A stretch of DNA of 64,000 nucleotides from contig JAWMAR010000131.1 of the NCBI GenBank assembly GCA_036785375.1, positions 310,001 to 374,000 of the forward strand, in the 5' to 3' direction. A program made the position numbers and the translations under genes. Shown here one piece after another: positions 7,457 to 63,535 of this stretch; the first letter of the stretch is position 1, and every line of letters begins with the position of its first letter. Origin of the DNA: Leucoraja ocellata (taxonomy: Eukaryota). Under the pieces are notes generated by a model. That model was not told the origin of the DNA. It ran no database searches and saw only the letters and a program-made list of their open reading frames with translations.

Positions 7457-7652
7457 GCACACAACATGCTAGAGTAACTCAGCAGGTCAGCATCTCTGGA
7501 GGGAATGGATAGGTGACATTTTGGCTCAGGGTCCTTCTTCAGGCTATCAACATGTTGCCTATCCATTCACTCAAGAGATGCTGCCCAACCCACTGAGTTA
7601 CTCCAGTACTGTGATTTACTCAAGATTCCAGCATCTGCAGTTCCTTGTGTCT
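7457..7652. mobile_element. Palindromic Penelope-terminus-derived element
   Basis: Arm gagtaactcagcaggtcagcatctctgg is inverted relative to gagatgctgcccaacccactgagttactc; ends in ccagcatctgcagttccttgtgtct. Confidence 0.8.
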
Positions 7653-7684
7653 GCAACAGTTATTACCTTTGTTGAGATGCTGCT

Positions 7685-8245
7685 TGCCCTGAGTCAAGAA
7701 GTCATGGTGCAGCTTTATTTGGTTTGGGTAGGTTGCATTTGGAGCATTGCCTGCAGTTCTGTTCACCCCCTTACAGAAAGCATGTGGAGGCTTTGGAAAG
7801 GGTGCAGAGGTTGTTTACCAGAATTATGCCTGGATTAGGGAGTATTAGCTACAGGAAAAAGTTGGACACACTTGGATTGTTTTCTCTGGAATGCCGGAGG
7901 TTGCACAGGGACTTGATAAACATATATAAAATAATAAGAGGCATAAAATCAAATACTAGAGGGCATAGCTTTAAGGTGAGAGGGGAAACGTTTAAAGGAA
8001 ATGTGTGTCAAGTTTTTTTACACAGAGGGTGGTTGGTGCCTGGAACACGCTGCCAGGAGTGGTGGTTGATGCTAATATGATAGTGACATTTAAGATACGT
8101 TTGGATAGGCATATGGATATGCATTACAAGGAGGGATATGAATTACTCACAGGCAGATAAGAGTTGGTCTTGGCATCATATTTGGCGTAGACATTGTGGG
8201 CCGAAGGGACAGTTTTTGTGAAGTACTGTTCAATGTTTTATGTCT
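7685..8245 (+). mobile_element. CR1 (HER1-like) LINE 3' fragment
   Basis: ORF 7724-8080 reads LEHCLQFCSPPYRKHVEALERVQRLFTRIMPGL...LGLFSLECRRL...TRGHSFK, the CR1 ORF2 C-terminus, followed by a gtgggccgaaggg tail. Confidence 0.9.
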
Positions 8246-9235
8246 CCTGTTGTGGACATCTACCTGGCAACAAAGGAGAAATGGTTTGTGAGAAAGTTGA
8301 GTACATTGCCGTGTGTATGTAATGGCACTAAAACGCACCATTCCCCTCAGCGTTGATGTTATTGAGCTTTTCAAGTGCCTATAAGAGATTACCCCAAAAG
8401 TTGGCCACTTTTCTTGTTTAGTATTTCAACATCTTGTGCCGAAAGATTGGAATTCAGCCATCTTTATTTCACCTAATACATGAGAATGCCAGCACCAATG
8501 CTGGCAAAGTAAGAAAATATTTCAAAATTGGGACATCCTTGCTTTAAAATAATGTTGTCCTGATTTGCTTCACTTTAAGACCACTGAACACAACTTGCAC
8601 TTTTCATAGATGCTACTGCCTTCCATACAGACAGCTGCTATGTGATTGTGGTATGCTGACTGGGAGGAAATTAATCTTCCTTTAAGGAGATCCTTCCACG
8701 GCAGCCTGACTGGAGGGAGCAAGGGCTCTGTGGCCAAGGAAGGGCTCCAAAGCAGTTTGCAGGTCCCTCACTCTACAAAGGTCCACTGGCATCAATTATT
8801 TTTATAAAATATAGGTTTACGAGGGATGCTCTTCCATATATAAAAATGGAATCCCAAGAGTCACTTTAGTTCATCCAAAGTTCAGTACTTTCATCATAAT
8901 GTACTCCACATTTTATCGTGAGTTTTTTATGTGGGTTGAAAGTCGTGACCTTTGATCCACTTTCTGATGTTCAGTAATTAAAACGAGCCAAGCATGTTGA
9001 TGATGTCATCCCGTGCACACAATACAAAGGGGAAATGAACCCAATGTTAGGTACTAATCACGATAGGAAATGACCGGTCAAATTCTCCAGTCAGTGAAAA
9101 TTCAGCAATCAAATACCTCAATACAAGCAGAAACTGCCTTTTTTACGCATTAAAAAACGATGAAAATTGATCTAACGTCAGGACGCCAGACCTTCCTTTC
9201 TAAAGAATACCAGCATATGAACGATTAAAAAGTGA

Positions 9236-9450
9236 ACACACAAGGAACTGTAGATGCTGGTTTACAAAAAAAGGACACACATGGAGTATTAAGCAGGCCA
9301 GGCAGTATCTCTGGAGAACATGGATAGGTGACGTTTCAGGTTGGGACCCTTCTTCATACTCAAGACCCGAAACAAATGGATAGATATCCATTTTGTGTAG
9401 AGATGTTGCCTGTCTCGTTAAGTTATTCCAGCACTTTTTGTGTCTTTTTT
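9236..9450. mobile_element. Palindromic Penelope-terminus-derived element
   Basis: caaggaactgtagatgctgg...ggtgacgtttcaggttgggacccttcttca followed by the inverted arm gacccgaaac...gagatgttgcctg. Confidence 0.8.
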
Positions 9451-10069
9451 TCATTATAAGTGTTTAAGGACATGAGCCATTCTAGCATGAATATCTCCAT
9501 GTGATCTACTATAAAAACCTTCCCAGTGGGGGCATCGTGGATGAATGGTTGCATGGTCTAATAATGGCATGCTTGAAAGGTCGTACCTGTAACTGTGTCT
9601 GATTGACATGTAGCGGCTTCAGGACGTGCTCTCCTAATTCTGTTCTTTAAAGCGGCCACTCCTAGAGGGATATATCATGCAGCATATTTGTACTTGACTG
9701 TCAACTATGTATGAAACATCTATTAGAGTGCTGATATTCTATTGTATTTGGTGGTTATTCAGTAATATGAGCAGATGTCCATAGATGACTGCTCCTATTA
9801 CTAATTGGTCAAGGCATCAATAAACAATATAGAGAATTATACTCTAGTGGTAATGTTCATGTAAAGACCAAAGAAGGAAATTTCTGAAATAGTTTCAGAT
9901 GATCAGCATGTTTTCAGTCCATGTTTACAGTCCATCAAGGACGGAGGAAATGCTTGAACTGGTTCTCGGTAACGAGATGGGTCAAATTACCTTTTCAACT
10001 TTTCAACTTTTTTAACAAATGAGTGGAACTGAATTTGGTAAGAGTGCATTCTAGCTGGTACCAGATTTA

Positions 10070-10361
10070 CTTTAGACTTGAGACATACAGTGTGGAAACA
10101 GGCCCTTCGGCCCACTTAGACCGATCAGTGATCATCCCGTACACTAGTTGCACTATCCTACACACTAGGGACAAATTACAATTTACCAAAGCAAATACTA
10201 CAAACCTATACGTCTTTGTAGTGTGAGAAAAAACTGAAGCACCCTGAGAATACCACACAGTCACAGAGAAAACGTACAAACTCCATACGGACATCACTCG
10301 TAGTCACGATCGAACCTGGGTCTCTGGTGCTGTAAGGCAGCAACTCTACTGCAGTGCCACT
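10070..10361 (-). mobile_element. HE1-like V-SINE
   Basis: Antisense tail (atacagtgtggaaacaggcccttcggcccac), V-domain (gaaaacgtacaaactccatac) and tRNA-like head. Confidence 0.85.
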
Positions 10362-10789
10362 GTTCATCTGAGGCTGAGAAACATAGTTGGGGTACAGTAG
10401 AGTGGCAGCTTTAACCACTGCCTGCAATCTGACCTACAGAGAAAGATCCTGTAGCTGAAATAGAACACAATCCATTTCATCTACCCCACCCCCCCTCACA
10501 CCCCATCCCACCCTAATCAAATCTAGATTTTCCTTGTCAAATGCCATGAACAATAGACAGAACATTAAAGAAATCCTGGGAATTATAATTATAATATGTT
10601 TCATAATTGCCCAGTGCAATCAACTATGGTAATTTGACCAGTATACGAGTATATCAGATTGCACAGCAAAGAAAATTAACACATAAGTTTGTTTGCACAA
10701 CAGAATTGATTTGAAGAGCAGAATACAACAGCGGTCACCTGGGCAACTAAAGGAAAAAGCAATATATGTAAGACAAAGCAGTTTGCAAA

Positions 10790-10875
10790 AGGATCCCGAA
10801 CACAAACGTCACCTATCCATGTTCTCCAGAGATGCTGTCTGACCTGCTGAGTTATTGCGGCACTTTGTGTCTCTT
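10790..10875 (+). mobile_element. Penelope-terminus-derived single arm
   Basis: aaacgtcacctatccatgttctccagagatgctgtctgacctgctgagtta. Confidence 0.75.
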
Positions 10876-11134
10876 TTAAAAATACATGTAAGCTGCTGAG
10901 ATCAGGCCAGTGCCTTCAGTCAACATGCTTCACATATTTGATGTTGCTGCTCCAATCCCAGATTTTGCATCAATGTCAAAGATGCCTCAACCACTAAAGC
11001 AGGCATAAATAAGTATGACCATGAAGGCTTGCATGAAGAGAATGAAAGGCCAGGCTGTAGCTGAGGCATTATCTAGGAATCTACCACTGAGATTCCGATT
11101 CGTACATTTTCAAATTACGGCTACCTTCTTTCTA

Positions 11135-11278
11135 TGTAGGAAGGGACTGCAGATGCACACAATGCTGCAGTAACTCAGCAGGACAGGCAGCATCTGTGGA
11201 GAGAAGGAATGTGTGACGTTTCTGATTGAGACCCTTTTGGCCAGAGATGCTGCCTGTCCCGCTGAGTGTCTGTCTACT
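11135..11278. mobile_element. Palindromic Penelope-terminus-derived element, internally deleted
   Basis: ctcagcaggacaggcagcatctgtgg is inverted relative to ccagagatgctgcctgtcccgctgag. Confidence 0.75.
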
Positions 11279-12106
11279 TTCTTTCTACGGTTAGTAGGTG
11301 GAACTCGGGTCCAATCACCATAGGGAATGCCTTTTCAAAATCGAATCACTCATTTTTATGATCATTCTTTCTTGTTTTAAAGCTAAAAATTTCTGATAAA
11401 AGATCATTTTTAATACATTTATGTGATGTTTTGCCTATTAGTTTAGCAGCAGCTTTCACCTATTTATGAAGATTAAATGCCTCTATTAAAATGGAGGACT
11501 GGTATAGAAGCATGTCAAGCATTCACCTGTTTTTATTGGAAAAGTTATCTGGCGTGAATGTAATTTTCTTTTTTTTTGATAAATAAAAGGAATTTAAAAT
11601 TAATGCAAACTATTTGTAATATTTTTTGCTCTTTAAACCTTTGATGGTTGTAAAATGTCTTTTACGATCAGGCCTGACATTACTTATGTAAAATAAGCAT
11701 TGGAAAGGTAATTCTAAGTTATGTTATGAGAGTGACAAAGGAAAGGAAATGTTAATAGGGGACACCTGATAGACAAGAGCAGCTTGCATGTGTGCAGTTT
11801 GCACCTTATTTCGTAGTTCCTTCCCTGAGCTTTGGAAACAATTATATTTAACTCGTGCTCTTAACATCCCAACACATGGCATTGGGGTTGAACAAAAGGC
11901 GGACGGTAAAGTAACACATGAGAGGGGATAAAATGTATGCAGAGAATGAGTCAGATGAGACGATGTTCATATTTATGGATAAGAACTCTGTTTTAACATG
12001 TTGGTTGATGGGGATTATATTTAGATCAGCAATGGCCGAACAAGACTCGGTGCTGGACACCATATGAGCAGAAATGATTTTGACATATTGAAGTATATGA
12101 AAGGAA

Positions 12107-12166
12107 CTTTGGTGTCATATGACTGTACTTACTTCTAATAATATAAAAAATAAAAAAAAATAAAAA
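12107..12166 (+). mobile_element. 60-bp A-tailed retro-insertion with a perfect 17-bp TSD (L1/Tx1-style)
   Basis: gaagtatatgaaaggaa at 12090-12106 and 12167-12183 flanks a short sequence that ends in an A-rich tail. Confidence 0.8.
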
Positions 12167-12607
12167 GAAGTATATGAAAGGAAAGGTATGATCATCTCTG
12201 TGCTTATTGGCCTCAAAAGTATACGAGATTTGTTTTTCTAGGTGAGGTTATGATGGCAATCAGAAAAATAATTAAATCTGCCATACCTAGTTTGCCATTC
12301 ATGTACTGTGACCCGGAAGTTAAATGTGCCCACATTTCTCAAGAAATGCCAAATTCAAGAGTACAGTCCATAGAGACCAGAGATGCCACGCACTCCATAA
12401 ACTTGGCATTATTTAAATGTGAGTTAAGGTGATGGCCCATAGGCTAATTATCCTTTTAATATAAAGTGTTAAAACCTCAAAATTAAGGCCCTGCCTAAAC
12501 TGCGGAGGAGTTTCAAAATATTGCGACAAAGTTGTGGATAAGGTAGACGAGACTGGAACAAAAAGCAAAATCTCCTTTAATCAATGATAGTAATTTCTAA
12601 ACGTCAA

Positions 12608-13799
12608 TAATTAGATTTTTTTTTTGGGTGGGGGGGACAACTTTAACTATATAGTTCTACCTTTTTGAAAGATTTAAATCAAGCCATTAAATCATGCTTT
12701 TAGAGAGTTTAACCTACTGTAACTATCATTTTCTTTCACCACGCATCCTGTGGGGCACTGCAATTCATTGTTCCAATCGAGGAGCCCAGTGCATGGAGAG
12801 ACGAAGCTGGTATATGACTAGGCAGGCAGCAAGGCTGGTCAAGATAAAGGTCAACAACTCCAGACTGCTAAAATGGAGGCCAGACATGAGCAGCTCGAAC
12901 AATCCAATTCCATCCTCGATTTGTTTCCTACCCTATTAACTCCACCATCAATCTATGGCCCACTAGACCTCAAAGGCATCTTCAGCCATCCCTTCCATTG
13001 TGCAACCAATCTCATGGCACCACACAAAAGGCGAAAGATCTCTGTCTGTAGTTAAATACACAAATACTTATGTGGCACATGATCATTTGTTTCTTCTGCG
13101 CAGCATAATAATTTTTCAGAGGTGCATGGCATGTAACTGATGTAGTCATTTCTACTGAAATGATATAAGGAAAATACCCTGGAGCGTAACTTTCCCAGAG
13201 CACTGGGAGGGGGGGATCAGACCTAATTAGAATCAGTCCTTCCTAGGTCCTGATATAAATCAGTTAAGGGGTGAGTGCCTAGATGCAGGTATGAATGGAT
13301 TTTGTGTTTCACTTCTGCCCCTGTTGACCTATGTTGACTTCAAGCTAAACGACGCTCAGAATAACTTACTCTCTCTTTCCTGGAAACTCATCAAAGATAC
13401 TCTCCTTTTTGTGAATCCCGTTTTTATTGTTCATCCAGTTTTGTGCATAGTTGTGCATGTGCAGATTATGCCTCATGAACTCTATACTGCATGTATAAAG
13501 TTTTTTTCCGACAATGCCAGTCCAGGTGCACTGCTGTTAATTGTTCACAGAGTGTTGCGTTTAGTTATTGTTTATGAGTTTTTATATGCCTAGTCATATA
13601 CCAGCTTCATCTCTCCATGCTCCTCGATTGGAACAATGAACCGCAGTACACCACAGGATGCGTGTTGAAAGAAAATGATAGTTACAAAAGATTAAACTCT
13701 CTAAAGCATGATTTAATGGCTTGATTTAAATATTTCAAAAAGGTAGAACTATATAGTTTAAACTGTCTCCCCCCCCCCCCCCAAAAAAAAATCAAATTA
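12608..13799. repeat. Long inverted repeat, ~215-bp arms (12608-12824 and 13587-13799) around a ~760-bp spacer
   Basis: aactatatagttctacctttttgaaa...gaagctggtatatgactaggca is the reverse complement of tgcctagtcatataccagcttc...tttcaaaaaggtagaactatatagtt. Confidence 0.9.
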
Positions 13800-14269
13800 C
13801 ATACATTGAGTTTTACTGAGTTGCATTGTTTGTGCGTGTATTTTTGTATTCTAACCTACTACTTTGAGATGGAGGGAGATCATTTGGCCCATCAAGTTCA
13901 TGCTGGCTCCAAATAGAGCTCCATCCATTCCATCGCCCTCTCTTTTACTGTCTTTCAAACCCTTTCACATTTTCATCTCCTTTGATTTAATTTTTTTATT
14001 TTTCAAAACTCATGACTGGTAAGGTGTCTGCAAATGCACTTTTCCTTGAATGAAAAGTGGTGACAACCAATTGATGTCACTTCTAACTGTTTGCTTCCCA
14101 GCATGAGCTGGGATTGCTTGCCTTTGTTAGATGAGCATTAAGTGACACCCTTCAACGCACACTGCTGCTTTTTGAGCTTTGCCAAGGAAATTGGTCTGTG
14201 TTGTTCCTAGAATGTTTATTTTTGATCACTAGCTGAACATTTGTCTTTCACTTTACTCTGTGCTAGATT

Positions 14270-14323
14270 AAGTTAAATTTCATGCCTACCTTTGTGTGAA
14301 GTTAAATTTCATGCCTACCTTTG
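14270..14323. repeat. Direct 25-bp duplication with a 4-bp spacer
   Basis: aagttaaatttcatgcctacctttg occurs twice, separated by tgtg. Confidence 0.9.
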
Positions 14324-15024
14324 ATTCCTTAGCACATTCTCCCATCACTTCAATTATGCAACCAACCTCATTCTACCACATAAATGGCCCCAAATCTAAA
14401 CCTCACCCATGCTATAAAACTCTGACCCTGATCACCAGTCTTCCCCCTCTCCGTCCCCTCACCCCTTCCCTTCACCCTTGACCTTCTATCCCATCTACAC
14501 AAGAAAATGGCTCTGCTAAAGAGCTTGGCATAAAACCTATGCCATACAGATCCTGACAGAAATCGCAAATGGATCTTCAGAAATGCAGTGGAGTGGGTGA
14601 GCAATTCCTGAAAGCACATTTCCACTTTTTGTGGTCTACAACATAGAAAAGATAAACTGTAAATAATGTCTGCTGGTGCATCTACAGCATGTCTAAACCG
14701 ACAGACCATAATGTCTAGTTGAAGAATGCATGATGAAATTAGTTTTGTCCAGGACCCCCAATCAAATTACTATGTTTCAGATCACATTTCTGTCCATTAC
14801 GAGGAAGGTTTTGCACAAAGGAGTGGTCCTTCACATTGAGCATGGCCCAAACATTTTAGCAGTCAACACAATCTCAGTTCCTGGGAGGGCAACTTTACGA
14901 CTACTTGGTTGAGCGCCACCAACTATTGTCAAGCATCACTGAGAGAAAGAGAGTAATTCTGGTTGACTTTGCTTGTTTGTTGAAGCATGGAACCTTGTAT
15001 CTTTCTGATCTCTGACTCCGATTC

Positions 15025-15370
15025 AGATTAGTGTTTGTCACATACATCGCGGTGCAATGAAATGTTGTGTTCTCATGAACCTCATAGAGCAAACAGTGTA
15101 CCTGGCCACAATGAGTGCAAAACAATGGAACGATGTAAAGATTTCAGTGGCATCTAAAGTAATGCAAAATAAAAACAAATGCAATAATGAAATGTGCTAA
15201 TGCGAGAGAATTATGAGTAAAAGATGTGGCAGCACCTTCAGAAAAGGAGTGTGAAAAAGATGTTTGGTTCAGGAGTCTAATAACCATGGCTGGAAGAAGC
15301 TATTCTTAAGTCTGGATGTCCATGCTCCTGTATCTTTTCCCAGAAGGTAGAAAAGATAAAAGGGAAAGGC
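15025..15370 (-). mobile_element. Degenerate Rex1/Babar-type 3' tail
   Basis: tttgtcacatacatcgcggtgcaatgaaat...ggttcaggagtct...ggaagaagctattcttaagtctgg is antisense to the tail at 21330-21620. Confidence 0.5.
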
Positions 15371-16029
15371 CAGGTTGGCAGGTATCATTATTGATTTGTG
15401 CATCCATCCTGATCTCCATTAGGCAGACTGTTGCATCTTGAGAATGACTCCTCAGTTTAAAAAAAAAACTAACATCGTTTAATTCAAAGCAGAACTGGCA
15501 AAACAATTATACAAAGGATTTCAAATCTTGGAATGAACAGATGATGCTTAGAGGATTAGTGATGGATTAAAATTGTCCTGTTTGTTATTGTTATTCAGTG
15601 GTTAAAACCCAAAACATTCCTATATGCTAAAAAACATTGCTTGTCTCGAACTTATTAAGAAGGGTATCTGTGAACGGAATATCCCATCTGGCAAAGTTCT
15701 GAGATTAAATTTGGCACCAATCACCTTGACTTGGCTCACAATCCTCAGATTTTTGTTCAAATCAAAGACCCATACAGTACCGTAAAAAAAAAAGTGTTTT
15801 TATGGTAACCATACAGATGGAGCTAGGCATAAAGAAGGGCAGCAGTTAACACACAGCTAATGAGAACACCGGGGTCTAGGCACAAATAAATAAACCGTGG
15901 GGTGAGGCAGTTGTGTAGTGTATTGTGAAATTAGTGATAATTGAAAAGACATGAAAAAATGTAACTATTAAAAGATTATTACTATAACAACATTACAAAC
16001 AGTCAAACAAAATGAAGGGATGTCATGGT

Positions 16030-16322
16030 CTTAGACGTAAACAGCATGGCAACAGACTCTGAGGCCCACCGAGTCTACACAAACCATCAAGCACCCATTT
16101 GCATTAATCTGACACTAATCCCTTTTCATTCTCCCCACGTTCCTGTCAACTCCCCCCAGATTTGACACACTTCAGCAATTTATAGTGACAAATTAACCTG
16201 GTAACCTGCAAAGTCTTTGCGGTGTTGGATGAAACCAGAACACCTGGAGAGCACAGGAGTTTAGAATTGAATCCAGGTCACTGGAGCTGAGGCAGCACCA
16301 CTACGAGCTGCCCACCACCGTT
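16030..16322 (-). mobile_element. Diverged HE1-like V-SINE
   Basis: ggcccaccgagtc tail, gaaaccagaacacctggag V-domain and ttgaatccaggtcactggagctgaggcagc head. Confidence 0.7.
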
Positions 16323-16539
16323 TCCCCAAATGCAGTTGTTTTTAAAATTGGAGGGAGAGCTGTCCAAATATGCTGTGGTGTTAATATGGTTATGAGGAGT
16401 TTTTGTTCAAATAGGGCACGGGTGATACGGAGAAGGAACATTATTGCATTTATGTCAACATATCTTTATATTGCTCTGTAGGTTTTTGTATTCATTACAC
16501 AAGTTAGGGGCTGAAAAGAACAATAATACTACTACTATG

Positions 16540-16725
16540 TGCTGGAATGTGGAATGAGCTGCCTGGGGAAGTGGTAGAGGCAAGAATGGAAATAACATTT
16601 AAGAGGCATCTGGGCAAGTACTTGAATGTGAAGGACATAGAAGGAAATGCAATTAATGTAGGCAAGTGTATAGACATAATGGTGGGCCAAAGGTCCTGTT
16701 TCTATACTGTAGAACCCTATGAGTC
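16540..16725 (+). mobile_element. CR1 3' fragment
   Basis: Translation WNELPGEVVEA...TFKRHLGKYLN, followed by the tail. Confidence 0.8.
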
Positions 16726-17120
16726 TATATCAATTACAGAATAGAACCACAATTGCTTCAGTCTAATATCATAGCAGAATTTCAGCGTGTGATCTATATA
16801 TGGAAGTATGAAAGGCTATTTTAATCTTTCCAGCAGCATGTTAAATCACTACTGTGAGTCAGCCTTTTTCTTTGTGAGCTTTTTCTTTCTATAGAAAGAG
16901 AAATTGAACAATGTCATTGATGCACACAATATCTGCACACAGGTGAAAGTTTAAATTTAACCCAGTCTACAACTGGAGACACAAGGGGAAATGCCAATGC
17001 TGGAATCATGAGCAAAAGAACAAAAGGCTAAAGTAACTGAGCAGGAGGGAGACAAAAAAGCTGGAGAAACTCAGCGGGTGAGGCGGCATCTATGGAGCGA
17101 AGGAAATAGGCAACATTTCG

Positions 17121-17715
17121 GCCCTTGTTACGAGTGGGGGGGGGGGAATAGGGAGTGAGAGCAGAGCTACGGGGTATGGAAGAAACCCTGGTGAGAGCCT
17201 CATCTATAGTAGGAGAACCCCCGTTCCCTGAAGAATGAGGACATCTCCGATGCCCTGGTGTGGAACACCTAATCCTGGGTGTAGATGCGGCGTAGACGGA
17301 GGAATTGGGAGTAGGGGATGGGGTCCTTACAGGAAGCCGGGTGGGAAGAAGTGTAGTCCAGATAGCCATGGGAGTCAGTGGGTTTATAGTGGATGTCGGT
17401 CAGTAGTCTATCACCTGTGATGGAGATAGTTAGGTCTAGAAATGGTAGGGAAATGTCGGAAATGGTCCAGATGTATTTGAGTGCCGGATGGAAGTTCGTG
17501 GTGAAATGGATGAAGTCAGTGAGTTGTGTGTGGGTGCAGGAGGTAGCACCAATGCAGTCGTCGATGTAGCGGAGGTAGAGTTTGGGGATAAGGCCCTGGT
17601 ACGCCTCAAACAAAGATTGTTCGACGTACCCTACAAAGAGGCAGGCATAGCTAGGGCCCATCCACGTGCCCACAGCTACGCCTTGTATTTGGAGGAAATG
17701 GGAGGAGTCAAACAA
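17121..17715 (-). pseudogene. Penelope-like reverse transcriptase fragment (frameshifted)
   Basis: QIQGVAVGTWMGPSYACLFVG...YLRYIDDCIG...LPFLDL...IHYKPTDSHGYLDYTSSHP...IPYSQFLRLRRI are diagnostic PLE RT motifs. Confidence 0.92.
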
Positions 17716-17744
17716 AAACCTTAACAACTTTCCTTTAACAACTT

Positions 17745-18135
17745 TTCATTTGCAACCGCAGGAAATGCTACACTTGTCGCTTTACCTCCCCCCTTGACTC
17801 CATTCAGACAGTGGTTTTTCCAGGTGCGGCAGAGGTTCACCTGCATCTCCTCCAACGTCATCTATTGCATCTGCTGCTCTAGGTGTCAGCTGCTGTACCT
17901 CGGTGAGACCAAGCGTTGGCTTGGCAATCGCTTCGCCCAACATCTCCGCTCGATTTGCATTAACCTACCAGCTCTCCGCACTTCAGCACTTCAGCTCCCC
18001 CCTCCCATTCCGAATCCGACCTTTCTGTCCTGGGCCCCCTCCATGGCCAGAGTGAGGCCCACCATAAATTGGAGGAGCAGCACCTCATATTTTGCTTGGG
18101 CAGTTTACACCCCAGCGGTATGAACATTGACCTCT
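17745..18135 (+). pseudogene. Penelope-like GIY-YIG endonuclease fragment
   Basis: FTCISSNVIYCICCSRCQLLYLGETKRWLGNRFAQHLRSI has the VIY...CxxC...YxGET...R..H pattern. Confidence 0.9.
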
Positions 18136-19499
18136 AATTTCAGGTAGTCTCTGCTTTCTCCTCCCCTTCTCAGCTCTCCCTCAGCCCACTGTCTCCGCTA
18201 CTTCCTTTCTTCTTCCCGTCCCCCCACCCTCACATCAGTCTGAAGAAGGTTCTCGACCCGAAACGTTGCCTATTTCCTTTGCTCCATAGATGCTGCCTCA
18301 CCCGCTGAGTTTCTCCAGCATTTTTGTCTATCTTCAATTTTCCAGCATCTGCCGTTACTTCATAAACAAAGGAACTGAGCAGATCAGGCAGCATCTGTGG
18401 AGGGAATTAATAGACAAGGTTTTGGGTCTTGATTTCTTCAAATATCATCTGACTTCATCAGTCTGAAGAAGGGCCCCAGTCCAAAACGCAGTCTGCCCAT
18501 TCCTTCCATGGATACTGTCTGGCCTGCTGTGTTCCTCCAGCCTTTTGTTATTTGCCCAATCTATATATGTACCACTTTACAAGTTTCAAATGGATGTTTG
18601 CAAATTTGACCTTGTGGTCATTCATTGAAATCCTTTGAAAATGAATGTCTGTGATGCTTTTAGAAAAACAATCATTGGTGGCAGTACTGTTGAGTGTATC
18701 TAAATATATAAGAAAACAGCAATGAACCTTTATATTGTATGTTTAATAACCATATCACAGCTGATTGTGAGCAGCTAGAAAGATCATATGTGAGATGCAA
18801 GCTGTTCGTTATGAAATTATTTACCTTATCACATGCATATTTGTCATTCAAAGCTAATAACTTCTTGATTTTTTTTAAATTAAATGCAAGTGATCAACAA
18901 TTATTTTTGAAAATTATTGGCCTCTTAAAACCAGGGCAAGTGACTATTTTGTTGCCATTTTTGTGAGGAGAGAGGTGTAATTAGATAAATTCAGCTCGTT
19001 GAACAGCAGTTAGTTAATTGAAAACCATACCTTAAATAATGGATACATCTACCCTGAAATAGAAGTACAATACAATAGCAGAGCAGGCATCTAGGTTTGT
19101 TTTGTGCTTCCATAACAGAATTTTGTATGTTAATTATAACATTTACATTAACGCTCATGAAAATATTTAACAAATGAAATTTATTGTGCTCTGCATGGCT
19201 GGATGCATTATTTCCAAAAAACCATTGTTGCGATTCTATTTGTTTACATTGTGCATGAGATGCAGGTGTTCAAGTTAAAATATTAGTATCTTCAACAATT
19301 CATTATGATATTACCATTAACTCCATTTTTCTTTTTTTTTTCCTGCTTTACCGCAAATGCCCAAAATTTGAAAATAGTTCAACAGAACTTTGCTTGTCTT
19401 CTGGTTAAAAAATAATAATCACAAATAAATTTGCAAAGAGTTCTCCTCAGTTTGTTAGCAAAATGATTAGTACTCACTCCAAACTGAGATGCATTGGTG

Positions 19500-19703
19500 G
19501 ATAGACACAAATTGTTGGAGCAACTAAGCGGGACCGGCAGCATCTCCGGAGAGAAGGAATGGGTGACGTTTCGGGTCGAGACCCTTCTTCAGACTCCTCT
19601 CGACCCATTCGTTCTCTCCAGAGATGCTGCCTATCCCGCTGAGTTACTCCTGCTTTTTGTGTCTATCTTCGGTTTAAACCAGCATCTGCAGTTCCCTCTT
19701 ACA
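19500..19703. mobile_element. Palindromic Penelope-terminus-derived element
   Basis: Inverted arms gcgggaccggcagcatctccggagagaaggaatgggt and acccattcgttctctccagagatgctgcctatcccgc. Confidence 0.85.
19565..19592 (-). ncRNA. Minimal hammerhead ribozyme core (PLE type)
   Basis: Minus strand reads CUGAAGA-A-GGGU-cucg-ACCC-GAAAC-GUC; stem I is only about 2 bp. Confidence 0.6.
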
Positions 19704-22759: not shown

Positions 22760-22850
22760 TGACACAAGAGATGGCAGATGCTGGAATCTAGAGCAAAAAG
22801 TAAAGTGCTGAAGGAACTCAGTGGGTCAGGCAGCATCTGTGGATGGAAAT
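22760..22850 (-). mobile_element. Penelope-terminus-derived single arm
   Basis: gcagatgctggaatc...ggaactcagtgggtcaggcagcatctgtgga. Confidence 0.7.
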
Positions 22851-22869
22851 CAACTGAAAATGTATATGC

Positions 22870-28310: not shown

Positions 28311-28374
28311 GATTTGTCGAGGAGTATTTCAGTGATTAAACTAATAACAAATCCTGGTTCTATTCTTGGATTTT

Positions 28375-49534: not shown

Positions 49535-49655
49535 CAGAAACAAAGAACTGCAGATGCTGGTTTTACAAAAAAAAGACACAGAGTGCTGGATTAACTCAGT
49601 AGGTCAGGCAACATCTCTGGATGACATGGAGGGGTGACGTTTCGGGTCGGGATTC
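49535..49655 (-). mobile_element. Penelope-terminus single arm
   Basis: gaactgcagatgctgg...ggtgacgtttcgggtcggga. Confidence 0.8.
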
Positions 49656-49952
49656 TCATTTCACAATTGTTACAATCATCTGTACATAAGAACATATTAA
49701 TTCTACTTGTGGTACAGGAGAGCTGCATTAGATTGGAAGTTCAAAAACATGGGATCCCAAATCAAGTGACTATGGAGGCAAGGGGAAGGGATTTTTTGTT
49801 GCGCACCTTATGCAAGGAACGTTACTTTAAAATATACTTTTAAAATATACTCTAAGATATACTTTAAAATGTAATTTCTTGCAAGCCAGGAGTTTTAGAA
49901 GAGGAACTGCCTCTTATGATAGTAACCCTTGGTGCAACTCCAAAACCAAGAA

Positions 49953-51009: not shown

Positions 51010-51840
51010 TAACGGATTATAAGCAGGATTGAGCATTCCAGGTCTCTGGACAATTGGACATCTTAGAGACACTTCTCTAGTGACACCTAGAGTAAGCATA
51101 AGAATAGTCAAGCCAAATCTACTCTGCCTTCCAAAAAAATAAATTAAGCTTACCTCTAATATTTAGAACTCTGGTCCAAAAGTTAAAATTGCAGTTTAGA
51201 TATGGACTACAATGTAATGTGGAGCAAGCTTCCATTCTTCCATTTTTGCATTGATGTTTTATGCAGTTTCTTAATCACTTTTGTACACTTCAATCAGATA
51301 TGTTTTGTGCAGCTATCATCATCACTGGCTTGAGCCCATTTACCAGCTTCAGTACCAGTGTACATCACATACATGGAGGAGAGTGATATAATTTCACCTT
51401 AAACATTGAAGCATTTCATTGATTTTCAGCTTCAGATCAATGAGGATGAATATAACAATGTATCCACTATCTAGTAGAATTTCTAAGCTATTAAGTGTAA
51501 GAATTAAAATGTCTGCAGATACTGCTGAAACCATCAAAGATGTTATTATATTTCCATGATGTTCTCAGCCATTGACTACTGAATATATGCTGTAAGTGAA
51601 AGATCTCTCCTGACTTGCTAATTGACTTGAGCCCAGTTGATTAAACAGATGGGTATATCTGTTGCTGAAGTTTAATGTGCTAAATGACAGAAATAATCAG
51701 ATTTTGTAAAAACCAAGTTAACACACTAGGCAGTTCCACTTTTCAACAGATTTTGAACTGATGTAGGTTTAGTCGATTTTTAAGCAGAGAAATGGTACTG
51801 CTACTTCCGTAAGTAGAGAAATACACCAGAACAGCTTCAG

Positions 51841-51938
51841 GCTGAAGAAGGGTCTCGACCCGAAACGTCACCCATTCCTTCTCTCCAGAGATGCTGCCTC
51901 ACCCGCTCAGTTACTCCAGCATTTTGTGTCTACCTTCG
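51841..51938 (+). mobile_element. Penelope-terminus single arm
   Basis: ctgaagaagggtctcgacccgaaacgtcacccattccttctctccagagatgctgcctcacccgct. Confidence 0.88.
51842..51869 (+). ncRNA. Minimal hammerhead ribozyme core (PLE type)
   Basis: CUGAAGA (51842-51848), A, stem II GGGU/ACCC, GAAA (51862-51865), palindromic ACGU stem III, GUC site ending at 51869; stem I is poor. Confidence 0.6.
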
Positions 51939-54399
51939 GGTTCAATGGATTTTGGTTGCTTAACTTGGAGGCCTGAATGTGAAAGCTACGACTTTTCAGG
52001 ATTACTAGGTGGGATCACTCGGAAAGCTTATTTTGTTGCTCAAAATGCCAAAAGACAATGGCAGGGTGCAGGGGTTGCTTGAATGTCTTGAGCATACTCT
52101 CCTGGTTGTCATGCAGTGTGCATCATTAATTGTAGCCATGGAGATTGTAGACTTGGCCATTCACCACTCCCAGCTGTATGGAAAAAAATATGTCTGTGCC
52201 CCTGGGTGAAGTGAAGGGATAAAATAGATGATGTGATAATTTTTCTATTATGAAAAAAAAATGTGTGCATTTTAATTTTAAAGAATCAGTAGCCTGCAGT
52301 ATAAAATATTCAGTAGTCAGAAGAAACTAATTGTTTTGTTTGTTTCTCCACCCAGAAGGTGCCTGTTTCAAATATTATGGTTGATTCTATTTTATCAAAT
52401 CTCCCCCCTTAACTCTTTTGGCAATAGCACATGTTAGTACCAGGGGCTGCTCTTTAAAACTAATTGCACAAGTACAGATCAGTAAATATTTGAGTCAATC
52501 AAGCTGCCAACTTCGGAGGGAACTTTGCAACAGAAAAAAAACCTATAGTAATTACCAAAGGTGAAAAAGTAGGGGTTAGGAAACTGTTGTGTGACAAAAC
52601 TAAAGAACAAAAGTAATTAAAATACTCATTTGTAATTAAGTAGTAATTAAAATGTTACGTGTAACTCAGAGTGCCATTTTGAAGTTTAAATAATTTAAGA
52701 TTATTGTTTAATATGGGTTTATAAGCTCATTAAATCACCTTTCTTTTAATGAAGCATCCGAAAAGAATGGCAGTGCAGACTTCTGTCAAAAAAGCTAAAT
52801 CTTTCCAGACTAAATTAAAAGAAAATGAGGAAGCCTAATGGCTTCTGTTTGGCAGCTTAAGCTTCTGTTTTTACTGTCACCTTCGTTTTATTCATGGTTG
52901 TCACTGTTGGGTCATGCATTATTAATAATAATTTTAGGAACATTTAGCATAAATGCCAGTACAGTACCATGCTAGCTTTCGACACGAAGCAACAGCATAT
53001 TGTTACAATTGCTGGAAATGTTCTGAAAATGATTACACTAGAGAACTACAGCTGGCCCAAATGTCCATGAAATCTGCTGTGATTTATTTCCCCCCCCCCC
53101 CCCCCCCCCCCCCCGTCCCCGCTTACTGCTATCGAGGTAAGTATTTCCCCATTGTGCACCATTTCTAGTTAGGAATTTACGTACACCTTTCTGTTATATT
53201 AATCTGCAAATATGAGTTAAAAGACGACAATGCAAATGTCAAACATGGCAGTTTAATAAAAAAAAGCTGAACCAAATGCAGTAAATCGGTGAGTGACTAT
53301 AAGGAGTGCGATATCGGGTTTGTATTCTGTATTCACAATGGAAATACATGTTTGCCTCTGATGGTCCCATTACGTCGGCATTTTCATTTCCAATGAAGGG
53401 TCAGAACTGAAACAAGAGCCTTCTATCAGCTCTGCGTGTAGGAATTAGCTATTTCCTACATTTTCTGGCTATGTTGTTTGCTGATTTTGCATATTTGCAA
53501 AACTACATTTTCTGACCCTGGATTTTCAACGCACTATATCCTCCATAGAAGAAAGGATATAGTGCAGTAGAGGAAAAATGATTAGAGAAAAATACATTGA
53601 AATCAATCCTTGGGATCTCTAAGGAGGGGTATGCCCCAAATTTAATCTTCTGCCTTCCTCTCTTCAGTGTATGTCCACGATTTTGCCGTAAGGTACCAAC
53701 AACTATCAACCTCTTGTGATCTGGATTTGGCAGTTTTTGAGTTGGTTCATAATGAATAGAAATCTGAACAGTTCCTGCTACCTTGTGGATTTGGAGGTGC
53801 CTGTTGCCTTCAAAAGTGATAGTTAACTTAACTGAAGGAACAAAGTAATCCACTGCACACACACAATACCTCTTTTATGTTGCAGCATAGATTGGCTGTC
53901 ACATTAGAAGCTGATATGCAATTTTAACACGGGGCCAGGAATTTAAAATGCTCAATTAAAAAAAAGCAGTGGTTGCCCTATATGTTCCTGAAAAATATAC
54001 TGATAGGGAACAATGTTGGTTGTTGGCTTTTATTTCCTGCCAAGCTCATGTAGAAATTGTGTATTCCCTGCTAGTATCATGATTAGTATGTGTGGATTTC
54101 TCAGTGGGTGTGAGAAAATCACACTGGCAGTCCAATTACTAGTGCCTATCTTAATGGATGTGTGTCTGTCCTGAAATATACTGTAATATTGCCTCTTTTG
54201 GAGCCTCACCACACACAGATATAGATATCTAAAAGATCTCTGGAATCCTATGGAGCTTCTGACTTTGAGCGGATCTGTGATGAATTCTTCTCAAATTTGG
54301 CTACCCTCAGAAATTCATCTTTATCCATCATGTGCTACATGATCACAAGATCACAAGAGATAGGAGTAGAATTAAGCCATTCGACCTGATATCATGCAG

Positions 54400-56684: not shown

Positions 56685-56868
56685 TAGTTCATAGATTCAT
56701 AAATGATAGGAGCATTCGGCCAATCAAGTCTATGCCTCCATTCAATCATTGCTGATCTATATTTCTCTCCTTATCCCATTTTCCTGCCTTCTCCCCTATA
56801 ACCCCTGACACCCGTACTAATCAAGAATCTATATATCTCTGCCTTAAAAATATCCATTGACTTGGCCA
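56685..56868 (-). mobile_element. CR1 (HER1-like) 3' tail
   Basis: ccattcaatcattgctgatcta...ctgccttaaaaatatccattgacttggcc. Confidence 0.82.
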
Positions 56869-58562
56869 TTGGCTGTAGTGTAGGTTTTCCAACATACCGT
56901 GTGTACTGACTGACTGAATATATGTTTTTGATAGTTAGTTGAGCAATGCCGGATTTATGGATATTTATTTTTAATGCTGCTTAACTGATCCACTGGGATC
57001 CAGCATCCATTTTTCTGGAAATCCAGAGAGCTAATTCCTAGCATATATTGTTTGAATTAATTTTTATGAAATCCTCAATATCATGGCTGTCAGCCCACTC
57101 GACTAGAAAAGTGCTGAATATTTTAAGGAATGAAATTGTGCAGAAGTTAAACATAATTGTTTCTTTGGATGGTGGTCTGTGCGAATTGAGAGGCAATATC
57201 TTATTTACTAGAACATTTGGTTGGCATCAGTTGCCTAGATTGAGCTGGCATTTGTCAAACTATATGTACCACCCATTCCCTCTGGTGTTTTGTTAATACT
57301 ACTAGGTTACCTCAGCAATAATCAATAAAAGTGTACCTGAGGCATGCAACTTGTTTCAAAGTAACATCATGGCAAGGGTTAACCCCAAACAAGATCTCTG
57401 CCCCTCTAAGGCCAAAATAAATTCATTTCATTAAGATAATTGCTGCAAAAAACGACCATTTGAGGGGCTTTTTAACTGTGGTGGGAAGTCTTAGCACTTT
57501 TTACTCTTACTTCAGGAGATTGGTGTGATTTATGTTAGTTTGAATACAAAGATAACTTGGTCAATGCACCAGCAAACGTTAAGGCAGTGGGAAGTTCCAG
57601 ATTTTATGTGTGTGTGTGTATTACTGACTCTAATATGTTTACTGGGATCAGTTAACATGGAGGAGCAAAGGTGCACTCCTAATAGAAATCTACCCATAAC
57701 TGGGTCCAGATCTTTGAGAAAGTCGTGCAGCAGGATTTCTCCTGGAACAGTTCCTCACCGTGGAGTAACTTGAGAGTCTGGGACTTCTGTTGGAGAAGGA
57801 GATGGTGTTCACATCATGCCGTGTAGGAGCCCAGCCTGAGATCCCCGAACAGGGATCCAAGGTATCTTCTCAGTGCTTGCTTTGGATTGGAATAATCTCA
57901 TTTTCCTATGCCCTTTGACAATTTTTTAATTTAGATGAACCTTAATACAGACAGAAATACTCAGCCTTTGTCCTCTAATTGAATTCAGTTGACAATTGGT
58001 GGGATTTACAAATATTATTCAGCTCGTACATTTGGAAATGATTAAAAAAATCATGTTTGATTATATATTTTTGGTCTTGCCTCCTGTAAACTTTCAGAAA
58101 TCTGGAGGAGAGCACATGGAAAATCCCGAGATTCTCACGTCCTGGTCACTTAAAGGTTTGGCCCTGTTATAGAATCATAGGAAACGTAGAATAAAGACGT
58201 TGGCCATTTGGCCGACTGAACCTATTCTCGTGGAGAGCTACATATTCTGGTCACAACATCTCGCTGTAGGTCAATGACTCTGCAGGTTGCAGCTGCTCAG
58301 AGACACAGCAGAAGATGTTTTGAATGTGATTGAGGGTGTCTGCCTCTCTCACCCCCTAGGGCCATGAGAACCATATGCCTATTACCCTCTAAATGAAAAG
58401 AATGCTCCTCTAATTTTATGACTAATTATTTAAAATCTATGCTTCAAGTCATCTAATTAACAAAATTTTACGATTTACCATCGCAGTATAATTAAACCCT
58501 TGGTCAGTAGGGATCTGTTTACATGAGAATTCAATCACACTTGACCAAAACAAATATTACTG

Positions 58563-58798
58563 TAGATGGACACAAAATACTGGAGTAACTCAGCGGGACG
58601 GGCAGCATCTCTGGAGAGAAGGAATGGGTGACGTTTCGGATTGAGACCTTTCTTCAGACTGATGAAGTCTAAAGAAGGGTCTTGACCCAAAACACCACCC
58701 ATTCCTTCTCTCCAGAGATGCTGCCTGTCAACCTGAGTTACTCCAGCATTATGTGTCTATCTTCGGTTTAAACCAGCATCTGCAGTTTCTTCCTACAC
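58563..58798. mobile_element. Near-complete palindromic Penelope-terminus element
   Basis: ~100-bp arms meeting at cttcagact-gatga-agtctaaagaagggtc. Confidence 0.88.
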
Positions 58799-59189: not shown

Positions 59190-59492
59190 GGTTAGAAATA
59201 AGGGGTAAGGCATTTAAGGGGTAAGCCATCTTTTAAGAATAAGGGGTAAGCCATTTAGAATGGAGATGAGGAAACACTTTTTCACATGGAGAGTTGTGAG
59301 TCTGTGGAATTCTCTGCCTTAAAGGTGGAGGCCGGTTCTCTGGATACTTTCAAGAGAGAGCTTGATAGGGCTCTTGAAGTCAGGGGATATGGGGAGAAGG
59401 CAGGAACGGGGAACTGATTGTGGATGATCAGCCATGATCACATTGAAAGGCCGAATGGCCTACTCCTGCACCTTTGTCTATAGTCTTTTGTC
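59190..59492 (+). mobile_element. CR1 (HER1-like) 3' end with a reiterated 5' junction
   Basis: gagatgaggaaacacttttt...gtggaattctctgcc...ggccgaatggcctactcctgcacc; taaggggtaag(g/c)cat occurs three times at the 5' end. Confidence 0.85.
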
Positions 59493-60380
59493 TAAATGAA
59501 TTATTATCAGTAGATTTTAAAGGAAGGTTATGCATGTTAGATATCATTTTGCTCAACGCTGTGTGACTTTAAAGAAGAAACTAACAGTAATAACCAAGAG
59601 AAATCTGGTTAAATGCACATTTAAGACATGTGTCATATTCCAGTCTGTAATATTCCATTATGTTTCAATTCAAACAATCCATTCCCAAGTATTACATTTC
59701 TTGTTAGATGTTGGCATCTTCAGGTTTATCAGAAGAAATCATGACATCAATCAACTTTTCTCAGGAGTCCAAAATAACACCATTCTTCAAATCTAATTAG
59801 GAATATCCTGAAAATAAAACTGCTAGAGTATCTCAGCAGGTCAAGCACCATCTCTGGAGAAGGATAGATGAAGTTTTGGGTCAGGATGGGAGTCTCCTGA
59901 TGCTTGCAAAATGTTCTCAGCATTATCTTACATAACTCATAAATAGTGATGTAGGATAGGTACGTTGGGACATATTTACTGTCTGTTTAATATTCAGGCA
60001 GATTACAGATACAATTAATTTGGTTTATTCTTTTTATAGTGACCTAGTTGATGTTGATTGGTATTTTTTCCGACCCATATTTGAACTTCATTGGATGGCT
60101 AAAAAACCTTGCTTTTTTAAAGAATTTTCCACCAGAGTAATCGGGACTTAGCTGGGATGTATTATTTTGGAGTTTGATCAGTTGAACACTGTTATTTATA
60201 TATTGACCATGTTGGTCTAAGGTATACATGTAAGTATACACATGCAGGTACTACTGTATATTGGGGTGGTTGAACTTTACGCAGGGATATAATAATGGTA
60301 AGAGGGACAATCACACAAGTATCGGCTGGAACTTTGCAGCCTATACAATCAACAAAATACTACTCCAATCGTGTTGTTTA

Positions 60381-60505
60381 AGAAAGAACTGCAGATGCTG
60401 GAAAAATCGAAGGTAGACAAAAATGCTGGATAAACTCAGAGGGTGAGGCAGCATCGATGGAGCGAAGGAATAGGTGACGTTTCGGGTCGAGACCCTTCTT
60501 CAGAC
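60381..60505 (-). mobile_element. Penelope-terminus single arm with an intact hammerhead core (60476-60503)
   Basis: ggtgacgtttcgggtcgagacccttcttcagac; flanks aatcgtgttgttta and aattgtgttcttta form an imperfect TSD. Confidence 0.85.
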
Positions 60506-60559
60506 AAAATTGTGTTCTTTAGTTTGCTTTCTGTTAAAGGAGTCTTTACATCACATAAG

Positions 60560-60755: not shown

Positions 60756-61008
60756 TTGGGCAAGATGCAATTTCTGCCCTGTCCCATAGGTTTGTCAGGT
60801 TTTCTGTGTCATTGAGAAGATTCTTACATAATGATTAGCCTCTAATCCACTTGATTAATACAAACAAATTATCTGTGTCCTCTTTAAATTGTGCACATAT
60901 AGATTGGATTACCATATCCCTGTATGAGATTAATGCATAAAGTGCAGGACCAGTGTTGCATCCAGTACAGACGGTGCAGTACAGATGATTGCTGGTGACG
61001 GTGCAGTA

Positions 61009-61472
61009 CGGGTCCCTGCTGGGAGACCGCTTTTCGGGGCTTCCGCAACGGCAACTTCACCCGCCCGAGTTGCGGGGTTGAAGAGTACCTGGAGCCGGGC
61101 CTTACATCATCGCCCGGCGCAGCTTGGAATGGCTGTGGGACTTTGCTAGCACCCGCCGGGGGCTCCAACAAGACCTGGAGCGCGGCCTTGCATCACTCAG
61201 CGCGGCGTTAATGGCCGCGGGACAATTACCATCGCCCGCCGGGGGCTTTGACTCTGACATCGGGAGGGGAATGGGGAGTGCAGGGAAGAGATAAGTTTTT
61301 GCCTTCCATCACAATGAGGAGGAGATGCGCTGTGATGGATGTTTGTGTAAATTGTGTTGTGTCTTGGTTCTTTCTTGTGTGTATGACTGCAGAAACAACA
61401 TTTCGTTTGAACCTCAATGGGGTTCAAATGACAAATAAATTGTATTGTATTGTATTGTATTGTATTGTATTG
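61009..61472 (+). mobile_element. GC-rich non-autonomous retroelement with a (TTGTA)n tail
   Basis: CpG-rich body, hairpin tttgaacctc-aat-ggggttcaaa, tgacaaataaa(ttgta)6; ggtgcagta at 61000-61008 and 61476-61484. Confidence 0.7.
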
Positions 61473-62499
61473 AATGGTGCAGTAAATGCACAATATCACC
61501 CGACTTGGCCAATTATGCTTGCATTGCATTGCCTTGATCATTTGACACAAATGCAGCTGGAAGCATGACCATTAATGCTATTATTTCACTTTCTGTTCTT
61601 CATTTTTGTTGTAAATTTCCAAAACACTTTGTGTGTGTGTGTGTGGGGAAAGAGAACACAAATTGGCTAAATTTGTTCCTTGGAAAGAACTGGAGAATTG
61701 CAACCTTCGGCAGTTGGTGGCTGGTTAGTGGCATTAAAGTGATTAGTGACCGTAACAGTTACCAATAAGCAAAGGAAACATTGGCATTGATGGCTTATGC
61801 TGTGGCTTCTCTTTCTCAGAACGTCCTGCAATCTCAGAAGTGTGCACAATTTATTTATAGCCGGAACGGAGCACCAGTGGTGTACAAGACGTTCTAAATG
61901 CAGATTGGCTGCTGTATCAGGATTTTTGTATTTTTTGACACCCCTGTGTATTATCATAATTGACTTCTGGACATGATATTGTGTTAAAATGAGGTGCATT
62001 TGTTTAAAGCCCTGGAGTCCCTTTCTTCGATTTTACCAAGTTTCAGCTTCATTGTCTGGGTCACATGACCTCTTCACCAGGCCTGTCCAAAGTTATAAAA
62101 GCTGAGTGACAGGGAATGGAGATTCAGTGACAGACCAAATATATGAAAGAAATCAGACTGCCAGTTGCCCATTAGAGTGGCTGCTGTACACGGCGGCCTC
62201 ATCATGTTTGCTTTCAAACTACACTGAGCACCTAAATCAGCAGAGTGAATGCAGATGGAAGTGGACAGTCGAGCTGCAAATGGCTGCAACAATGTCATCA
62301 AACTTTTTCATTCAACTGCAGGAAAGCTTATTATCACCATTGTGTTGCGTGTTTAACTGTTTCAGTGAAGCAATCCAGTGTTTGAGCTACGAGACAAGAT
62401 GATTCCTGAATTGTAACACTGATGGGAGGGTTTTACTACTAAAAAACAAAACTTTGGTGGGAATAAAAGTACAAATTGCAAGCGGATCTGGCGGGAACT

Positions 62500-63200
62500 T
62501 CAGAACAATAATAAAACCTGGACATGTGAAGACCTTTTTGTAATATTGCAAAACATCCCAAGGTTCTTCACAGGAGTGTAGTTAAATACGATTTGCCACT
62601 AAGTAATAATAATAATAATAATAATAATAATACATTTTATTTATGGGTGCCTTTCAAGACTCTCAAGGACACCTTACAAAATTTAATAAACAGAATAACA
62701 AAACATGTAAGCGGAATGAAACAAAACAAAAAAAAAAAAAAAGTAACATAAGGATATTCGGGCAGATAACTAAAAACCTGGTTATAGAGAAATCTTCTAA
62801 GGAACATTTTTATAAAAGAAAAGTGATGTAGACAGGATAGAAATTCAACAAAGCAGTGAAGTTTACAGAAGGAATTGCCAAAGCTTAGGGTCTTGGTCAG
62901 TGAAATCATTGCACATTGAATTCTGGGATGATTAACAAACCAGATTACCCAAGTACATATATCAGGAAGGTGACAATGCTGGAAGAGTTTACTAAGGTAG
63001 AATGAGGAAAAGAGTTAAAAGCAAATGTGAATAACTAAAGTTAGGTAGCAACCACCTGGATCCATTGTGGATCGGTGTGTGCATATCAGTTGCGGATAAA
63101 TGGGATTAGAGAAATGGGAAACTTGCATTGGTAAACATTTACCGATACATGAAGAGTGAAGACAGACTGAGCAATATGGAAAAGTTAAGTCTAGACATTG
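62500..63200 (-). mobile_element. Old L2 3' end with a younger L2-type tail nested at about 62605-62742
   Basis: aaaacatcccaaggttcttcacagg...ggaattgccaaagcttaggg; nested (aat)n-acattttatttatgggtgcctttcaagactctcaaggacacctta. Confidence 0.55.
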
Positions 63201-63450
63201 TAAAGGCTTCTCCAAACTGGAGCGCAATTTGGTTCAAATTTGTTTTTTTAGGATATTCCTGAGGGCATTGGAGTTAGGGTTATGGTTGTGATAAAAGGAA
63301 AGGGGCAAAAAATAGTTTTTTTATAACTATTGGAGGTAATCGTACGTGAGCGTGAAGAGAAACCACAGTTTTTAAAGCTTTTTGTTTCCCATTTGCAAGC
63401 ATTGGCAAAATTGATGGTGCAATTTAGGTGAACTGTTGAGAATTACACTG

Positions 63451-63535
63451 AAGGACACAAAGTACTGGAGTAACTCAGCAGGTCAGGCAGCATATCTGGG
63501 GAACATGGATGGGTGACGTTTTGGATTAGGACCCA
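63451..63535 (-). mobile_element. Penelope-terminus single arm
   Basis: gacacaaagtactggagtaactcagcaggtcaggcagcat...gggtgacgtttt. Confidence 0.8.

Follow-up and report, generated by a model that had tools for sequence, protein, structure and literature searches.

Hammerhead ribozymes and their link to the ends of Penelope-like elements (PLEs) have been known since 2014. The minimal PLE hammerhead has an extra base between positions 9 and 10.1, a G10.1-C11.1 pair and palindromic positions 15.2/16.2; most of the motifs are single and probably come from truncated PLEs, pairs lie on opposite strands, and activity is low, even as dimers (PMC4209133, Cervera and de la Pena). An inverted, 5'-truncated arm and a tail of 30-40 bp on one end are likewise a known PLE feature in the portions covered of PMC3846280, PMC8557442 and PMC11167929. 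For PAc, a Poseidon element of Anolis carolinensis (Frangieh 2024, PMC11167929), the sections covered report that the protein nicks both strands, that both are extended, and that reverse transcription starts inside the RNA at two sites bracketing the tail; the RNA is inserted uncleaved, and hammerhead mutants insert normally. Here we analysed a 64-kb stretch (the window) of the Leucoraja ocellata assembly GCA_036785375.1 (contig JAWMAR010000131.1, positions 310,001 to 374,000), which is crowded with short repeats of a Penelope terminus. We found that these repeats are probably dead-on-arrival short insertions, present as solo and inverted pseudo-long terminal repeat (pLTR) ends, of autonomous Penelope/Poseidon-type subfamilies. 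Each arm is an element terminus headed by a minimal hammerhead, and the copies decay after insertion. The kind of element is not new.

An nhmmer profile built from nine window copies detected 32 arms with E<1e-3 between positions 981 and 63545; the reversed window served as control, and its best match had an E value of 0.66. The arms make up 23 loci and cover 3076 bp (4.8% of the window), which amounts to one locus per 2.8 kb of non-coding DNA with a GC content of 39.6%. This count agrees with the roughly 20 copies noticed in an earlier, model-made reading of the letters (the sequence-only reading). Most loci lie within the range 7457-63535 given there, but two, at 981-1070 and 6419-6492, lie to its left. 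That reading had not mentioned the nine head-to-head inverted pairs, which hold 18 of the 32 arms; the remaining 14 loci are solo. The 3' ends had a bimodal distribution, with two classes about 35 nt apart: 18 arms stop at or before profile column 113, and the other 14 (one of them assigned from its continuation beyond the Penelope remnant) carry a tail to columns 127-140. Identity to the Penelope terminus at 18233-18368 was 82, 86 and 89% for the three best copies and 64-94% for the others, indicating that the arms are several age classes or successive subfamilies and not one homogeneous family.

Next, we examined the marks of insertion. Direct repeats of at least 10 bp with at most one mismatch flank 9 of the 23 loci compared with 3 of 300 random intervals, and repeats of at least 12 bp flank six loci compared with none of 300. 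The target duplications are 10-15 bp long and 72% AT, against 60% for the window. A tail was found on exactly one arm in all nine pairs (independence P 0.0017, permutation P 0.010), and seven different junctions occur among the eight short pairs. Target duplications and one tail per pair thus bear out the proposed origin from a Penelope terminus and indicate insertion by Penelope machinery. Priming at both nicks, one per start site, would yield the head-to-head layout.

The short pairs, located by profile and flanks, are at 7459-7646 (short minus arm and tailed plus arm), 9242-9445 (tailed minus arm and short plus arm), 11135-11274 (14-bp target duplication), 18370-18548 (older and split by the Penelope remnant, its minus arm resuming at about 17045-16985), 19493-19705, 30266-30424 (old, with a 12-bp flanking direct repeat), 37639-37820 (10-bp target duplication, with the junction at the stem III palindrome) and 58555-58798. 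The last is the most complete: both arms reach the hammerhead, and the core is intact at 58630-58657 on the minus strand. The inverted pairs bury the hammerhead in long hairpins of -110 to -157 kcal/mol and do resemble MITEs (miniature inverted-repeat transposable elements), so the warning in the sequence-only reading that annotation tools could mislabel them was sound. True MITEs of a DNA transposon, with inverted repeats resembling a Penelope end by chance, would have such long inverted repeats, but here the arms are unequal, 14 loci are solo, the duplications are anywhere from 10 to 15 bp long, and the end of a GIY-YIG open reading frame (ORF) runs without a break into the sequence. We regard this as the least probable of the readings weighed here.

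That ORF belongs to the Penelope/Poseidon-type remnant at 17046-18369, which is one head-to-head insertion of two 5'-truncated arms with their termini outward, reverse transcriptase (RT) on the minus strand and GIY-YIG endonuclease on the plus strand. A 15-bp target duplication with one mismatch (17030-17044 / 18368-18382) flanks it, and in its outward termini, single tail and 15-bp duplication it shares the architecture of the short pairs. The left arm carries an RT fragment with the YIDD motif and thumb (17122-17745, minus), broken by stops and a frameshift, which an internal deletion joins to a short tail-less terminus (17046-17129, minus; 94% identical to 18258-18329). On the plus strand, the right arm consists of a linker and a frameshifted endonuclease fragment with a stop at 18145 (17732-18147), an 84% pyrimidine untranslated region (UTR; 18148-18239) with an Initiator-like motif, TCAGTCT, of putative function at 18235-18241, and a hammerhead (18240-18267; one stem II mismatch, GUU triplet) leading into the tailed terminus (18240-18368). 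The endonuclease matches PF01541 with E 0.002, below the curated cut-off. Among named matches the RT is closest to an Amblyraja radiata (thorny skate) protein at 82%; those of rays and sharks come next at 66-72%. In these relatives RT is followed by a C-terminal GIY-YIG, and the domain set of endonuclease-bearing (EN+) PLEs is found in the remnant but not in the short copies. We infer the Poseidon label from the domain order, host group and short RT-endonuclease linker of the relatives. No Penelope ORF pieces were found in the window outside 17046-18369.

The young remnant (17030-18382) landed in an older terminus copy, which fits a reported tendency of PLEs toward their own ends. Its segment 18144-18239 combines a GT donor at the endonuclease stop, a long pyrimidine tract and an AG just before the hammerhead, and is possibly a retained intron; a second pyrimidine-plus-AG precedes an ATG inside the unit. 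A spliced template was considered and rejected: although the UTR allows a GT-AG intron to be drawn, no upstream exon is common to the short copies, the only hint being 5 nt at 60509. The unit as an ORF start was likewise rejected, as the translations of five arms did not match 17 relatives convincingly, and only four short, unnamed ORFs without domains came out of a database search.

The arms share a 5' boundary at the hammerhead. Thirteen of the 16 arms that reach the hammerhead 5' end stop within 10 nt upstream of it, whereas a constant-hazard null based on the rate of truncation within the unit predicts 2.1 (P ~1e-9). The modal arm 5' end is 3 nt before C3. Beyond the boundary only 1070, 18233 and 28802 continue, all into pyrimidine-rich sequence (78-84% vs 30-50%); the first is the end of an old arm (981-1070, minus) and the last that of a tailed arm with a deleted hammerhead (28802-28900, plus), and both have a probable UTR in front. 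The target duplication of four solo copies abuts the boundary, at most 10 nt from C3, indicating that the boundary was set at insertion. The repeats could instead be what is left of longer insertions that deletion, or recombination of one terminus with the other, shortened later. The arms commonly have internal deletions, hairpin centres are deletion-prone, 14 of the 23 loci have no clear duplication, and such shortening has been suggested in Adineta for solo pLTRs without duplications. However, intact duplications directly flank the short solo copies 24986, 10777, 63545 and 60509, and later deletion would not have ended time after time within the same few bases, which makes this explanation very unlikely.

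The boundary bases fit the Initiator consensus YYANWYY with +1 at the modal end (BBCABW, 5/6). Under the reading of short Penelope insertions, the transcript may, most simply, begin a few nucleotides upstream of the ribozyme, and reverse transcription begun at the 5' copy of its start site would run off the RNA end after 100-140 nt to give a short product; we hold the balance for and against this start to be about level. Run-off at the RNA 5' end would explain both the abundance of the short copies and their shared 5' boundary. More tentatively, with an Initiator three bases before the hammerhead, 5'-site priming might mass-produce 100-140 bp ribozyme-headed inserts, single or as two-armed hairpins with one priming event at each site, some of them re-mobilised with flank (11135 to 19705). 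We regard this extended version as possible but doubtful.

These features are shared in part with described systems. Like PAc in the sections covered of PMC11167929, the window unit has a hammerhead followed after ~100-140 nt by two tail-bracketing ends, its targets are AT-rich, and insertion of uncleaved RNA, a PAc feature, would suit it. Unlike PAc as described there, it has no start codon at stem II; the 64 kb hold no full-length copy and no partial tandem forming direct pLTRs; and those sections describe no 5' pile-up at the hammerhead for PAc. Penelope of Drosophila virilis and Adineta vaga, in the parts covered of PMC2377424 and PMC3846280, is similar in its inverted pLTRs with an optional tail on one, its solo pLTRs, its 8-10 bp duplications and, close to the 5' end of the pLTR, a palindrome and an Initiator-like motif. 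It differs in that the density in the window (23 loci in 64 kb) is far higher, and in that the D. virilis start lies 46 nt before a 75-nt intron ending at helix I.

A different source for the short copies would be a true non-autonomous mini-Penelope, in which one or a few short master loci (solo or hairpin), transcribed themselves or within host transcripts, are repeatedly mobilised by Penelope protein acting in trans. The shared 5' boundary, the layout of a short and a tailed arm in all pairs, and an identical 15-nt centre in two pairs would all be expected of it. So would the 70 bp of flank shared at 87% by the 11135 and 19705 loci, as 3' transduction would give, and a 12-bp direct repeat around the second of these loci (19463/19798), a length reached by 5 of 500 null intervals (about 1%), with 23 loci of the window tested. 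Moreover, pLTRs suffice for mobilisation in trans in Adineta, and putatively non-autonomous Chlamys PLEs exist. On the other hand, the same boundary recurs in classes that are 64-94% identical, some with UTR-bearing members, the eight short pairs have seven different junctions, local inverted duplications are also found at a distance from arms (12608-12824/13587-13799), and no internal promoter or tRNA head was found in the unit. We therefore consider master loci of this kind unlikely.

Several observations weigh against the interpretation of the repeats as short insertions of autonomous subfamilies. Fourteen of the 23 loci have no duplication above background, and the single coding remnant leaves the parents of the other age classes out of sight in the window. 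The null model for the 5' ends is crude, and three anchors are misplaced by a single base. Only composition identifies the UTRs of 1070 and 28802, whose alignment scores lie within the null. The Initiator match is short and common, and the same bases can be read as a splice acceptor, as in D. virilis, and overlap a 9-bp near-palindrome that could favour joining. A tree of 29 of the 32 arms was poorly resolved, a star falling on 1 of its 26 branches. Often the closest match of an arm is not its pair partner, which ranks anywhere from 1 to 26 (identity is 0.81 within pairs compared with 0.74 overall), and the 15-nt centre is common to two pairs of different age (18442/18457 and 58663/58662). The 3' flank common to the 11135 and 19705 loci counts on this side as well. 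In favour of the interpretation, short copy 60509 groups in the same tree with the termini of the coding remnant, at weak support (87/69).

We then turned to the hammerhead itself. The three cores quoted in the sequence-only reading are present as described, at 19565-19592 (minus, in the short arm of the inverted pair 19493-19705), 51842-51869 (plus, in the solo arm 51836-51948, the first pair of stem I lost) and 60476-60503 (minus, in the solo arm 60375-60509, which has a tail and a 10-bp target duplication). All three are intact minimal hammerheads, and their identification is confirmed by the extra nucleotide 9/10.1, G10.1-C11.1 and the palindromic 15.2/16.2 of the PLE minimal type I. A strict minimal-hammerhead descriptor matches these three copies only, with one match in 40 x 64 kb of Markov null. 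A relaxed core pattern gave six matches in the window against 0.27 expected, a number reached by none of 100 shuffles. As all copies go back to one origin, chance is better gauged per 140-nt unit, at about 5e-5. The whole motif is spanned by 13 of the 32 arms, six of which keep all invariant nucleotides and the NUH triplet; the complete motif, comprising stem II with G10.1-C11.1, the extra base after A9 and the palindrome, occurs in 3 of the 32. A covariance-model search with Rfam, a check proposed with the original identification, gave no hammerhead among 10 matches at E<=10 in the window, which would be unsurprising for a hammerhead without loop 3.

The window copies share with the motifs of PMC4209133 the core, the extra nucleotide after A9, G10.1-C11.1, the palindromic 15.2/16.2, the lack of loop 3, and the prevalence of single motifs, with dual motifs on opposite strands 100-700 bp apart. 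They differ in helix II, which has 4 bp compared with 6-8 bp in the examples of that paper. Helix I was expected to be only about 2 bp, and the arms indeed have 0-2 contiguous bp; none has the 4-5 bp of Schistosoma. A 2-bp helix I occurs in D. virilis Penelope too. In the zebra shark Stegostoma, a protein reads through 120 Pro/Ser/Leu-rich residues beyond its endonuclease, and its end peptide is compatible, at the protein level and not that of DNA, with the same core, spacing, stem II and palindrome, as the sole full match in 6862 windows. This peptide may provide independent support for conservation of the hammerhead.

Although the motif is recognisable, the window copies show little sign of activity. 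G12 is altered in 10 of 24 arms, nine times as G>A at a CpG. Seven monomer segments folded no better than shuffles (z 0.25-1.83) and never reached the hammerhead fold, the probability of stem II was at most 0.05 in five folded copies, and the catalytic dimer skeleton came to -13 to +7 kcal/mol compared with -42 to -78 kcal/mol for alternative dimers. By these predictions catalysis in the window copies is disfavoured, as folding never favours the active form. Stem II of the window arms gave no covariation signal: 75% of cells are paired, with one double change, and 455 of 500 shuffles were as high. Whether the core is conserved above its flanks, a second check attached to the original identification, had a marginal answer. 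Differences from consensus were found in 8 of 130 non-CpG core cells and 94 of 747 downstream cells, which is significant by Fisher test (P 0.037) but not by site permutation (P 0.063), nor among six young arms (3/60 vs 30/355, P 0.45). The pattern would fit selection in the parents and neutral decay after insertion. In the short copies the hammerhead would be cargo, not needed for their insertion.

The term 'retrozyme-like' that the sequence-only reading had used for the family was not supported. Non-LTR retrozymes consist of hammerhead units in tandem, which cleave themselves as dimers, form circles and insert again. In the parts covered of PMC7229834 and 10.64898/2026.07.22.740005, they resemble the window copies in having a type I hammerhead, here with a palindromic stem III, a relation to PLEs and no protein; a pLTR origin has been proposed for them, and they are reported in one chondrichthyan genome (10.64898/2026.07.22.740005). 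There, however, they are tandem, and those of the 2020 paper have canonical ribozymes and make circular RNA, whereas the window copies are dispersed, solo or inverted, with a minimal and mostly dead motif. The 64-kb window contains no head-to-tail copies, and the retrozyme definition therefore fails. Between nearest neighbours on the same strand lie spacers of 357-1332 bp that are unrelated to one another, and none of 17 Tandem Repeats Finder rows in the window is the Penelope-terminus unit. Nor are the copies permuted or cut at the cleavage site, where there is no pile-up of arm ends; at most 2-3 of the 32 arms start near it (columns 38-39), all ambiguously. With 3 of 32 motifs intact and the dimer energies above, we find a retrozyme origin exceedingly improbable.

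Recognising the repeats as short Penelope insertions would mean that abundant hairpin repeats of the source genome are PLE ends, not MITEs. Two-site internal initiation, a model based until now chiefly on a single in vitro system, gains countable genomic tests from the fixed 5' boundary and the rule of one tail per pair, both of which also suggest why PLEs leave many solo termini. If transcription does start at the Initiator and some inserts are re-mobilised, the genome would hold a very large natural record of the PLE mechanism in vivo, and also of the birth of non-autonomous PLEs. Literature searches on the element returned no paper on a skate family, although the supplements of 10.64898/2026.07.22.740005, which lay outside the search, may list it; two searchable supplementary files of the PLE-hammerhead paper contain no shark or skate term.

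The solo arms, placed by profile, vary in age and completeness. Besides those described above, target duplications accompany 10777-10877 (plus, 12 bp), 24986-25121 (plus; a tail, an exact 13-bp duplication, G12 and A15.1 mutated) and the older 63441-63545 (minus, 13 bp). The arm at 29711-29798 (minus) has an intact core but a broken stem II and palindrome, and that at 6419-6492 (plus) has an internal deletion. Older arms lie at 22767-22883 (minus, with a tail), 28374-28445 (plus), 49541-49656 (minus, with a tail), 59803-59886 (minus) and, weakly matched (E 5e-4), 35213-35285 (minus).

Other features were found around the arms. The 70-bp 3' flanks at 11065-11134 and 19704-19773 are 87% identical, in inverted orientation, at loci 8 kb apart, and could reflect either local duplication or 3' transduction. 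Inverted duplications with copies about 1 kb from each other are found locally at 12608-12824/13587-13799 (87%), with no arm nearby, and at 57855-57960/58826-58932 (81%), the latter starting 28 bp from an inverted pair. No host exons emerged when 16 and 50 long frames were scanned with Pfam, although short exons would escape such scans. A second dispersed family of about 300 bp (10066-10363, 23049-23344, 36006-36186, 38783-39060, 43208-43479 and 47947-48218) resembles what we take to be an elasmobranch HE1-type short interspersed element. Fragments of the 3' part of long interspersed elements (LINEs) lie at 25437-25743, 31007-31603 (partly tandem), 32570-32966, 56713-56867, 59254-59438, 8015-8117 and 44723-44825, and their translation resembles, we presume, the C-termini of CR1 ORF2. 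At 2-271 on the minus strand there is a match to Pfam PF09004 (E 9e-11), which in such DNA we assume to be a C-terminal piece of a LINE reverse transcriptase, as is usual, and not an ALKBH8 gene. Finally, a GC-rich long hairpin at 34408-34541 has a weak miRNA-like score in Rfam and is possibly a small DNA-transposon relic.

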